64,000 nt of DNA, taken from Acidimicrobiia bacterium (GTDB taxonomy: Bacteria > Actinomycetota > Acidimicrobiia > Spongiisociales > UBA11373). Location: NCBI GenBank assembly GCA_016932695.1, contig JAFGCH010000081.1, positions 15,404 to 79,403 on the forward strand. Reading direction: 5' to 3'. Under the pieces are notes generated by a model. The model was not told where the DNA came from. It ran no database searches and worked only from the letters and a program-made list of their open reading frames with translations. A program made the position numbers and the translations under genes. Positions 8,354-16,165 of this stretch are shown in pieces; the stretch's first letter is position 1; every line of letters starts with the position of its first letter.

Positions 8354-8584
8354 CTACTCGCCGCGGTCGATGATCACCTTGTCGGCAGCGATCTCCTCGA
8401 AGGCGATCGACAGTGGCTTGCGCGACAGGGAGTGCACCTGGGGGGGCACGTAGGAGCCGAGGCCGTCCCCCAGTTGGTGGAAGTAGGCATTGATCTGGCG
8501 GGCGCGGCGCGCCGCCAGCACCACCAGCGCGAAGCGGTTCTGCGTCCGCTCCAGGACGGTCTCGATGGCAGGTTCGATCATCAT
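8354..8584 (-). CDS. rpoZ: DNA-directed RNA polymerase subunit omega; the real start is the internal MMIEPAIE, because the ORF-track ORF is an over-extension into gmk
   Basis: The 76-aa protein ...NRFALVVLAARRARQIN... matches RpoZ, and its position between coaBC and gmk is conserved in actinobacteria. Confidence 0.85.
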   Translation of the reverse strand: MMIEPAIETVLERTQNRFALVVLAARRARQINAYFHQLGDGLGSYVPPQVHSLSRKPLSIAFEEIAADKVIIDRGE

Positions 8585-9150
8585 GCTGCAGTTCCAGGGG
8601 GTGAGGGGGCCGTCAGTATACCGGCCACCTCGTCGATGGCCCGCACCAGGTCGTCGTTCACCACCACATGGTCGAACCAGCGGGGCGCCTGCTCCATCTG
8701 GCCGCGGGCGATGGCCAGGCGCCGGGCGATCTGTTCGTCGTCGGTGTCCCCCCGTCCGCGCAGGCGGGCCTCCAGCACCTCGAGGCTGGGCGGGGCGACC
8801 AAGACCAGCACGGCCTCCGGATAGGCGGCTTTGACTTGCTCCGCCCCCCGCAACTCGATGTCGAGCAGGACGGAGGCACCCGCCGCCAGGTGGGCCTCCA
8901 CCGGCGAGCGAGGAGTCCCGTACAGGTGCCCGCTGTATTCCGCCCACTCCAGCAACTCACCGGAGTCCCGAGCGGCCCCGAAGTGCTCCCGATCCACAAA
9001 GAAGTAGTCGACTCCATCCCTCTCCCCCGGCCTTGCCGGGCGCGTGGTCATCGACACCGAGAAGTGGAACGGGAGTCGAGCGGCGAGCCCCGCCACGACG
9101 CTCGACTTCCCCGCCCCCGAAGGACCGGAGACTACGACGAGGCGGCCGCG
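8581..9150 (-). CDS. gmk: Guanylate kinase; the 5' end is uncertain because there is no canonical start upstream of the P-loop (see findings)
   Basis: FHFSVSMTTR...GVDYFFV...ELLEWAE... are Gmk motifs. Manual translation upstream of the ORF-track start gives the P-loop LVVVSGPSGAGKSSVVAGL encoded at 9097-9140. Confidence 0.7.
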   Translation of the reverse strand, partial: RGRLVVVSGPSGAGKSSVVAGLAARLPFHFSVSMTTRPARPGERDGVDYFFVDREHFGAARDSGELLEWAEYSGHLYGTPRSPVEAHLAAGASVLLDIELRGAEQVKAAYPEAVLVLVAPPSLEVLEARLRGRGDTDDEQIARRLAIARGQMEQAPRWFDHVVVNDDLVRAIDEVAGILTAPSPPGTAA

Positions 9151-9160
9151 GCGGGGCGGG

Positions 9161-9473
9161 TCAGGAGAGGGCGGCGATGAGCGCCTCCTTCTGCTTGACG
9201 CCCAGGCCCCGCAACCGGCGGCTCTCGGCGATACCCAGGCGCTCCATGAGGCGCGCCGCCTTCACCTTCCCCAGGCCGGGGAGCGATACCAGGGCGGCGC
9301 TCACCTTGAGCCCACCCACGGCGTCGTCGGTCTCGGCTCGGGCCAGCAGGCCGGCCAGGGTCAGCGACCCCTCCTTCAGCGCCTGCTTCACCGCCGCCCT
9401 TTGCTGCCGGGCGGCAGCCGCTTTGGCCAGCGCTTGCGCCCGTTGCTCCGGGGTCAGTTTCGGTGGTGCCATC
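9161..9473 (-). CDS. mihF: Actinobacterial integration host factor mIHF; the real start is the internal MAPPKLTPEQ
   Basis: The 103-aa protein ...LTLAGLLARAE...LPGLGKVKAARLMERLGI... matches mIHF, and the mihF-gmk-rpoZ order is conserved. Confidence 0.8.
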
Positions 9474-9498
9474 ACCCCTCCCTCCCTCGGGCTCAACT

Positions 9499-15092: not shown

Positions 15093-16165
15093 GGGCGCTC
15101 CAACTCCCGGCGCGACCCGGTGAGGATCTCCGGGCCCGACTCCGTTACCAGGACCATGTCCTCGATGCGCACCCCGCCCACTCCGGGCAGGTACACCCCG
15201 GGCTCCACCGTGACTACGTCCCCCACCCGCAGCGGGTCTTCGTTGCCGCGGCGCAGCCAGGGCGGCTCGTGGATCTCGAGCCCCACCCCGTGGCCCGTGC
15301 TGTGGAGGAACTGCTCCTCGTAGCCCGCGGCGCGCAGCACGGCGCGCGCCGCCTCGTCCACCTCATGCCCCGTTGCCCCCGGCCGACAGGCGACGATCCC
15401 CGCCTCCTCGGCTTCCAGGACCACACCGTAGACCTGCCGCATAAGCGGGTCGGCGGGGCCCTCGAGCCACACCGTGCGGCTCATGTCGGAGTGGTAGCCG
15501 TCGACCACACACCCGTAGTCGAGCAGCAGCAGGCCCGACCCCAGGGGCGCCGGCCCGGTCTCGTAGTGGGGTATGGAGGCGGCCGGGCCCGCCGCCACGA
15601 TTGCCTCCCAGTCGGCCCGCTCTCCCCCGTGGCGGCGCATCTCGGCGACGAGCTCCCAGGCCAAGTCGGCCTCGCGGGCCGCTCGCCCCAGAAGCTCGCC
15701 CAGGGCGGCAAAGGCGGCGTCTCCGGCAGCGGCGGCGGTGCGCAGCGCGGCCAGCTCGGGCTCCTCCTTGGCGCGCCGCAGGTCTTCGACGCCTGCGGCG
15801 GCGGGGATCGGGGCCACCCCGGCCTTCTCTTCGAGGCCCCGGGCAAACTCCCAGGTCACCCCGGCCGCTTCCACCTGCACCCGCTCCAATCCGGCGAGCA
15901 GATCCCCCAGCGCCTTCCAGAGATCACCGGTGTAGACCCGGAGATCGAAGTGCGGGAACGCCTCCAGCAACGGCGCCGCCGATTCCCCGTAGCGGCCGTC
16001 GGTGAGAAAGGCCCCTCCACCGCCGGGGCGAACCAGCAGATAGCCGTTGCTGCCCGTGTAGCCGATGAGGTAGCGCAGGTTGGGGGCGCGGGTCACTAGT
16101 AGGGGGGCCTCCAGGCGGGAGGCGAGCGCGTCGATGCGGGCGGGCGTTGGCATGTGGCTCCTCAC
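15089..16165 (-). CDS. pepQ: Xaa-Pro aminopeptidase (M24 family)
   Basis: The C-terminal M24 pita-bread domain [18 protein letters not shown] and GVRIED is present, and the pepQ-efp-nusB order is conserved. Confidence 0.8.

Follow-up and report, generated by a model that had tools for sequence, protein, structure and literature searches.

Start-less gmk behind mihF in a clade of Acidimicrobiia, with a possible frameshift at the mihF stop codon

The majority of eukaryotic antizyme genes carry out their +1 shift at UCC_UGA, with a stimulator located 3 nt 3' of this site, and CCC_UGA has been reported to shift at more than 1% in Escherichia coli genes (PMC5009743). Here, we describe a bacterial junction with a similar layout, between mihF, which encodes the actinobacterial integration host factor (mIHF), and gmk, which encodes guanylate kinase, in a 64,000-nt stretch of an Acidimicrobiia bacterium (assembly GCA_016932695.1, contig JAFGCH010000081.1, forward-strand positions 15,404 to 79,403), the whole of which is termed the window. 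Our tentative proposal, to which we attach a probability of about 0.45 on the basis of sequence comparison, is that gmk in this clade of Acidimicrobiia lacks a start of its own and that a frameshift (+1 or -2) at the mihF stop would produce an mIHF-Gmk fusion. To our knowledge, the bacterial chromosomal genes that depend on programmed frameshifting are few, comprising prfB, dnaX, copA, and a handful more. In the case of prfB, competition by release factor 2 (RF2) at the UGA codon sets the efficiency of the shift.

Both gene products are readily recognized, and the coordinates of the features discussed here, which are given on the minus strand, are collected in Table 1. The mihF product is a full-length mIHF (NCBIfam NF041260, actino_IHF, 4.7e-37, 126.6 bits against a cut-off of 60, positions 3-101 of 102), and also matches Pfam PF22525 (5.7e-25). 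The Gmk domain is full-length as well, including β-strand 1, the P-loop, and the GMP-binding region (TIGR03263, 1.5e-61, 207 bits against a cut-off of 160, positions 1-179 of 180), with further matches to Pfam PF00625 and to PDB entry 1s4q (1.4e-45). The domain starts at GGC (9147-9145), the codon for the G of GRLVVVSGPSGAGKSS, and only 13 nt lie between the mihF stop and this first kinase-domain codon. β-strand 1, encoded at 9141-9130, is present in all solved guanylate kinases. The Mycobacterium tuberculosis enzyme (1s4q) aligns from PAAVGRVVVLSGPS, while residue 2 of the yeast structure 1ex6 aligns with the R of GRL, the short yeast enzyme beginning one residue before that position.

The gmk frame is open from a TGA at 9264-9262, and the 38 codons from there up to the G at 9147 include no ATG, GTG, or TTG, and no CTG, ATT, ATC, or ATA either. 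Indeed, near-cognate NTG or ATH codons are absent from this frame in the window from 9261 to 9133. Frame reading thus bears out three claims of the initial annotation, namely that no ATG, GTG, or TTG occurs upstream of the P-loop as far back as this TGA, that the first canonical start is a GTG located after the P-loop, and that gmk is in the +1 frame relative to mihF, the stop of which is at 9163-9161. From composition alone, 1.39 starts would be expected in 38 codons and the probability of finding none is 0.24, so a start-less stretch of this length is not unusual. Its significance derives instead from the fact that an essential gene needs a start, and from the comparative data.

With the Gmk protein as query, 160 loci were recovered from GTDB genomes and JGI metagenomes. 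The clade set drawn from these consists of metagenome-assembled genomes of Acidimicrobiia and metagenome contigs with 66-95% Gmk identity, and provides 28 distinct junctions plus L100, which carries an in-frame 9-nt insertion; junction positions are numbered from the G of GRL (= 0). The initial annotation had named a comparison of orthologous mihF-gmk junctions in close relatives as a check, and the start-less +1 layout proves to be common to the clade. The gmk frame is +1 to mihF in 28/28 junctions and in L100, with the mihF stop at -16 in 26 members and at -13 in two (L006 and L007). A canonical start is absent from the whole open gmk frame in 19 of the 28 junctions. The nine that possess one do so at scattered positions (-54, -63, and -84), which arise from the choice among synonymous mihF codons; L103 adds a single ATG at -12. 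In five members, the frame is interrupted by a TGA at -33, and the 10 codons that remain hold no conserved near-cognate; in the window, L081, and L091 there is no NTG or ATH between -117 and +15. L081 is a 95% identical relative with the same start-less junction.

The codon at -12 is CGG in 15 members, CCG in three, GAG in three, CTG in two, GGG in two, and CAC, CGC, and ATG in one each. NTG at this position thus occurs in 3/28, which is roughly the neutral expectation for a free codon. Codon -12 drifts like an unconstrained linker and is therefore not a selected start. Codons -6 to +6, on the other hand, vary almost only synonymously: -6 is CGC, CGA, or CGT; -3 is CGC or CGT, with one conservative exception (CAC, Arg to His, in L102); 0 and +3 are GGN and CGN, each with all four bases; and +6 is CTC, CTG, or TTG. 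Since the PRRGRL sequence downstream of the mihF stop is kept through synonymous changes, it must, to judge from this pattern, be translated. RRG(R/T/K)L is the conserved Gmk N-terminus across Actinomycetota, and strong purifying selection acts on the kinase domain, which is intact. With no selected start and with PRRGRL translated, it follows that translation either arrives from upstream or begins without a start codon.

The last two sense codons of mihF are constrained in a way that points to a possible site of entry. The Leu codon of this pair is CTC in 17 members, CTT in eight, and TTC in one, and never CTG, while the Ser codon is TCC in 22 and TCT in three, and never TCG. In the window's own genes, CTG makes up 67% of Leu codons and TCG 49% of Ser codons; the final mihF codons thus avoid the genome-preferred choices, and their third position is only C or U. 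The stop is TGA in 27 junctions and TAA in one (L094), and is followed by C in 21/28. Most often, the context therefore reads CUC_UCC_UGA_C.

A predicted GC-rich hairpin begins 3 nt after the mihF UGA (Table 1). Among 66 conserved four-fold gmk codons in 26 sequences, only CCC at -9 (9156-9154) and GGG at +57 (9090-9088) are without synonymous variation; these two invariant codons pair with each other, and the next-lowest variation is also located in the 3' arm. Two loci were left out of these synonymous-site statistics: L090, in which the frame is disrupted at gmk codons ~35-42 (AVASLKKS replaces SMTTRPAR), and L141, which has an N in the 3' part of gmk and is out of frame near the end, both probably through assembly errors. 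Pairing in the stem amounts to 10-13 of 13 in all 29 clade sequences, whereas 105 other gmk loci average 6.3 of 13. The Gly at +57 is specific to the clade, other clades having Ala, Arg, or Glu, and every one-sided change in columns 21-30 and 68-75 (mid-stem) keeps pairing. The synonymous-site and clade-specificity tests were relied upon because folding energy alone is weak here. As a conserved feature, the predicted hairpin is well supported by these comparisons.

Table 1. Positions in the window of the genes and junction features discussed in the text.
Feature	Position	Strand	Remarks
Candidate shift site CUC_UCC_UGA_C	9160..9169	-	last two mihF sense codons, stop, and next base
Codon -12 (CCG in the window)	9157..9159	-	only codon between the stop and CCC; first two bases vary freely in the clade; its third base G is in the first hairpin pair
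GC-rich hairpin (predicted)	9087..9157	-	5' arm GCCCCGCCGCGGC (9157-9145), 3' arm GCGUCGUGGCGGGGC (9101-9087), with an inner hairpin
GGAGG, Shine-Dalgarno-like	9184..9188	-	inside mihF (codons K-E-A), at -41..-37, ~21 nt before the stop
GTA, Val of β-strand 1	9133..9135	-	aligns with the GTG/ATG called as start of 184-aa gmk models in relatives
First canonical start in the gmk frame, GTG	9094..9096	-	after the P-loop; a product from here lacks the ATP-binding loop
mihF (actinobacterial integration host factor)	9161..9472	-	103 codons, ATG 9472 to TGA 9163-9161
gmk frame, if entered by a +1 shift	8581..9162	-	D-P-P-R-R-GRLVVVSGPSGAGKSS..., ends at TGA 8583-8581
rpoZ	8354..8584	-	ATG overlaps the gmk stop as ATGA (8581-8584); second ATG next

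Recoding at the end of mihF is the simplest account that fits every member of the clade. According to this proposal, translation of gmk would depend on ribosomes that are translating mihF. When UCC, the codon for Ser103 of mIHF, occupies the P site and the weak stop UGA-C has entered the A site, a fraction of ribosomes would slip by +1 and read GAC; alternatively, the tRNA-Ser may slip back by two bases (-2), from UCC to UCU on CUCUCC. The shifted ribosomes would go on in the gmk frame to give an mIHF-Gmk fusion of ~32 kDa, while most ribosomes would terminate and release abundant free mIHF, and the conserved hairpin 3 nt after the stop would act as stimulator. The predicted trans-frame junction peptide is EALIAALSDPPR for a +1 shift and EALIAALSPDPPR for a -2 shift. 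That ribosomes slip here, in which direction and how efficiently, and what the hairpin does are all matters that we infer from the sequences of the clade.

A single polypeptide with both domains is found in nature. Fused homologues have been used previously as support for predicted frameshifts (Antonov et al., PMC3711429), and we searched for such fusions with the hypothetical trans-frame product as query, followed by a full HMMER scan with one of the fusions found. Single-ORF (open reading frame) mIHF-Gmk proteins of 288-333 aa, with both PF22525 and PF00625, occur in many lineages (P0121-P0148, P0149-P0190); full-length fusions fall into at least 11 clusters at 50% identity, some of them labelled Candidatus Nanopelagicales. 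The gene order of the window is pyrF, mihF, gmk, rpoZ, coaBC on the minus strand, and the fusion of L162 (2501-3391) lies in the same synteny, pyrD-pyrF-fusion-rpoZ-coaBC. To judge from these sequences, the mIHF-Gmk polypeptide is a viable and recurrent architecture. These natural fusions share with the window the two domains, their order, the locus, and a similar linker length; unlike the window, where the domains lie on either side of a TGA stop and a +1 change of frame, they consist of an uninterrupted single ORF, and the L162 locus is devoid of the CCCC and GGGG motifs of the hairpin. They hint at a functional link between the nucleoid and GMP/GTP synthesis in Actinomycetota.

Several observations weigh against a frameshift at the mihF stop. 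The known fusions come only from distant lineages (47-57% identity), and no simple in-frame mIHF-Gmk fusion was found in any member of the clade. The shift codon is not universal across the clade (UCC in 21-22, UCU in three, and UUC in two), and L006 and L007 read UCC_CGA_UGA, their stop being shifted by one codon so that no spacer separates it from the hairpin. Re-pairing at the P site in the +1 frame (CCU) would be poor. As for the hairpin, covariation is weak, with a compensatory change in one pair only, so that its support derives mostly from invariance, and single-sequence folding gives a z of -1.04, which is not exceptional for 71% GC. Furthermore, the shift codon is not preceded at 3 nt by a Shine-Dalgarno-like motif; the nearest GGAGG ends 17 nt upstream of UCC, a distance too great for a role like that of the prfB motif. 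Finally, pairing with this upstream GGAGG could instead be what constrains the C/U-rich tract.

The GGAGG inside mihF is itself conserved: GGAGG or GGGAGG (-42..-37; as AAGGAGG or AGGGAGG, 9184-9190 in the window) is kept in 25/26 clade members, often by way of AGG, a rare Arg codon. A small hairpin is predicted between this motif and the downstream CUCUCC tract at the stop, and L004 displays a possible compensatory pair, AGAAGG with CCUUCU. This motif is not the strong GGAGG that the initial annotation had placed at 9165-9170, which was read from the wrong strand; the coding strand there has CCTCTC, and the plus strand GGAGAGG.

Among the alternatives, termination followed by reinitiation deserves attention, although we regard it as unlikely. 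A ribosome that ends mihF would restart at an NUG overlapping the stop, in the third frame, translate three codons, and then slip by -1 on C_CCC into gmk, yielding free Gmk with the N-terminus M-T-R-P-R-R-G-R-L. NTG overlaps the stop in 27/28 junctions (CTG in 22, TTG in three, and ATG in L006 and L007; CUGA in the window), but this overlap is trivial, as any base before TGA makes NTG. Moreover, of these bases the clade relies on C, the weakest, and the common codon TCG, from which GTGA would result, never occurs; L094, with its TAA stop, has no NUG at all. The tetramer CCCC (-9..-6) is invariant in 28/28, and the remaining inner hairpin would sit ~8 nt past it; C_CC.C is among the six -1-prone tetramers in E. 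coli when structure is present downstream (PMC4066793). Pairing with the invariant GGGG would account for this invariance just as well, and two inefficient steps in series would be demanded of an essential enzyme. More doubtful still is a restart free of any start codon, whereby the post-termination ribosome would be held, unrecycled, at the base of the hairpin and resume in the gmk frame without initiator tRNA, producing free Gmk from around D/x/P. Such a restart would reconcile the lack of a start codon with the translation that PRRGRL requires, and the stop does lie 0-3 nt from the conserved hairpin. Janosi and colleagues reportedly observed in 1998 that unscheduled downstream restarts occur in E. 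coli upon inactivation of the ribosome recycling factor, which counts in its favor; we know of no natural gene that relies on this process, which counts against it. The fixed reading frame would be unexplained without a frame-setting signal, as would the choice of UCY and CUY codons. If true, this would be a natural bacterial restart independent of both start codon and initiator tRNA.

Weak internal or lineage-specific near-cognate initiation, leading to an N-terminally shortened Gmk, receives little credence from us. The candidates would be GTG or ATG at +12 in relatives, ACG at -27 in some, and GTA or the GTG at 9096 in the window. GTG is found at +9 or +12 in 19/28 junctions (codon +12 being GTG in 16, GTC in 10, and GTA in two), databases annotate 184-aa products from there, and ATC or CTG seems to serve as the gmk start in other clades of Actinomycetota. 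A start at +12 would, however, delete β-strand 1, the GTG at 9096 would cost the P-loop, and the upstream PRRGRL is under constraint at the protein level. GTG is simply the commonest Val codon. A non-canonical initiation codon, one of the possibilities raised in the initial annotation, is thus unsupported for the window, where no NTG or ATH lies upstream of β-strand 1, and the codon after the mihF stop varies freely. An indel or assembly error had also been suggested there; together with a decaying pseudogene, it is the explanation that we consider least credible by far. One missing base could in principle hide a start in a metagenome-type assembly such as this source, but an independent Logan assembly (L161, SRR13394437) is 100% identical over 2144 nt including the junction, the same junction is present in 28 distinct sequences down to 66% protein identity, and a domain as conserved as this kinase does not resemble a pseudogene; the suggested error is hence refuted. 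Coupling or a frameshift with mihF, the last possibility given in the initial annotation, is the option that the evidence favors.

Other routes were tried and rejected. One indel would not bring in a start from another frame, since CTG is all that the third frame has to offer, and TAG follows 10 codons later. Recoding of the TGA as sense would lead to readthrough in the mihF frame and yield nonsense instead of Gmk. A long N-terminal extension begun inside mihF would have to use the starts at -54, -63, and -84, which only 9/28 possess; furthermore, second positions of the gmk frame are unconstrained within mihF (the mihF Ala codon at -7 uses all four bases), and the TGA at -33 would interrupt the extension in five members. 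Hopping from UCC to the UCC at +18 would skip the conserved β-strand 1. Transcriptional slippage was rejected on the grounds that RNA polymerase slippage needs homopolymer runs longer than the four-base runs present.

The neighbours of gmk use ordinary starts. mihF has an ATG preceded by a strong GGGAGGGAGGGG ribosome-binding site at 9477-9488, coaBC starts at ATG 8351, and rpoZ also starts at ATG, its ATGA overlap with gmk being ordinary translational coupling with a canonical start. No second copy of gmk was found within the window, and no known RNA family in Rfam matches the junction region. A sister group (L011, L012, and L104), in which mIHF ends in EEFS, displays the same TCC_TGA and +1 layout; L011 and L012 have an ATG ~90 nt upstream inside mihF, and L104 only a TTG at -57. 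The gmk models that result from this ATG are 216-217 aa long (P0063, P0084, P0093, P0135, and P0144) and overlap mihF by ~75 nt.

Public gmk gene calls in the clade are systematically shortened (P0001-P0045, P0043, P0055, and P0078). The calls measure 184 aa (from the Val in β-strand 1), 177 or 171 aa (from inside or after the P-loop), or 156 aa (from an internal Met); P0001, the window's own sequence, is called as the 156-aa internal-Met model. These shortened calls are an artefact of the missing start codon, and dozens of database gmk models in this clade therefore lack β-strand 1 or the P-loop, which constitutes a systematic annotation error.

Literature searches covering mIHF, gmk, start codons, and frameshifting turned up no account of a gmk without a start, of a mihF-gmk frameshift, or of mIHF-Gmk fusions. 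If a frameshift at the mihF stop is indeed how gmk is translated, an essential housekeeping enzyme would join the bacterial genes that depend on programmed frameshifting, and Gmk would be synthesized in a fixed, low proportion to an abundant nucleoid protein. It would represent a new case of bacterial chromosomal recoding, with a cassette that is antizyme-like rather than prfB-like and that unites a nucleoid protein with a nucleotide kinase.

Among known systems, the closest in gene content are other Actinomycetota in which gmk follows mihF. gmk starts there at -9 (GTG) or at -15 (TTG), and some clades have a conserved ATC or CTG there instead, apparently as a near-cognate start. Loci whose gmk is without ATG, GTG, or TTG, with the codon at -9 concerned, are L027, L037, L039, L040, L044-L046, L048, L053, L058, L060, L064, and L065; in L064, ATC is the sole option, since the frame is closed by a TGA at -18. 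CTG is located at -9 in L061, L069, L071, and L076 and at -12 in L041, L043, L072, L074, and L012, while L078 has an ATA overlapping a TAG stop. From these sequences, it seems that weak and probably coupled initiation is the rule for gmk downstream of mihF in Actinomycetota. Loci with apparent near-cognate initiation (ATC, CTG, or ATA) share with the window the gene pair, a very short spacer, and the lack of a canonical start; they differ in that the near-cognate at -9 or -12 is conserved, whereas in the window's clade -9 is always CCC and the codon at -12 drifts.

Termination-reinitiation at ATGA or TGATG overlaps (PMC6728339, PMC10666635) likewise involves tight, co-directional genes, a downstream gene devoid of its own ribosome-binding site, and a downstream start region held in a structure that the upstream ribosome would open. 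The mihF-gmk junction is unlike these in having no in-frame start at the stop; the overlapping CUG is in the third frame, and the next in-frame codon is CCG. prfB offers a bacterial chromosomal +1 shift with a pyrimidine-rich codon before a weak UGA-C (CUU_UGA_C), but its CUU must be preceded, at a distance of 3 nt, by a Shine-Dalgarno-like motif, in place of which mihF-gmk has the more distant GGAGG and a 3' hairpin. Moreover, prfB joins two parts of one protein, while a shift at mihF-gmk would join two different proteins. The antizyme cassette is eukaryotic, encodes unrelated proteins, and has a demonstrated pseudoknot, whereas the structure at the bacterial junction is predicted to be a simple long hairpin and there is no sign of polyamine sensing. 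In its layout, the antizyme cassette nevertheless resembles mihF-gmk of the window: UCC_UGA ends ORF1, ORF2 is in the +1 frame and start-less, an RNA structure, at mihF-gmk a predicted one, lies 3 nt past the stop, and termination gives the ORF1 product while the shift gives, or at mihF-gmk would give, the fusion (PMC5009743).

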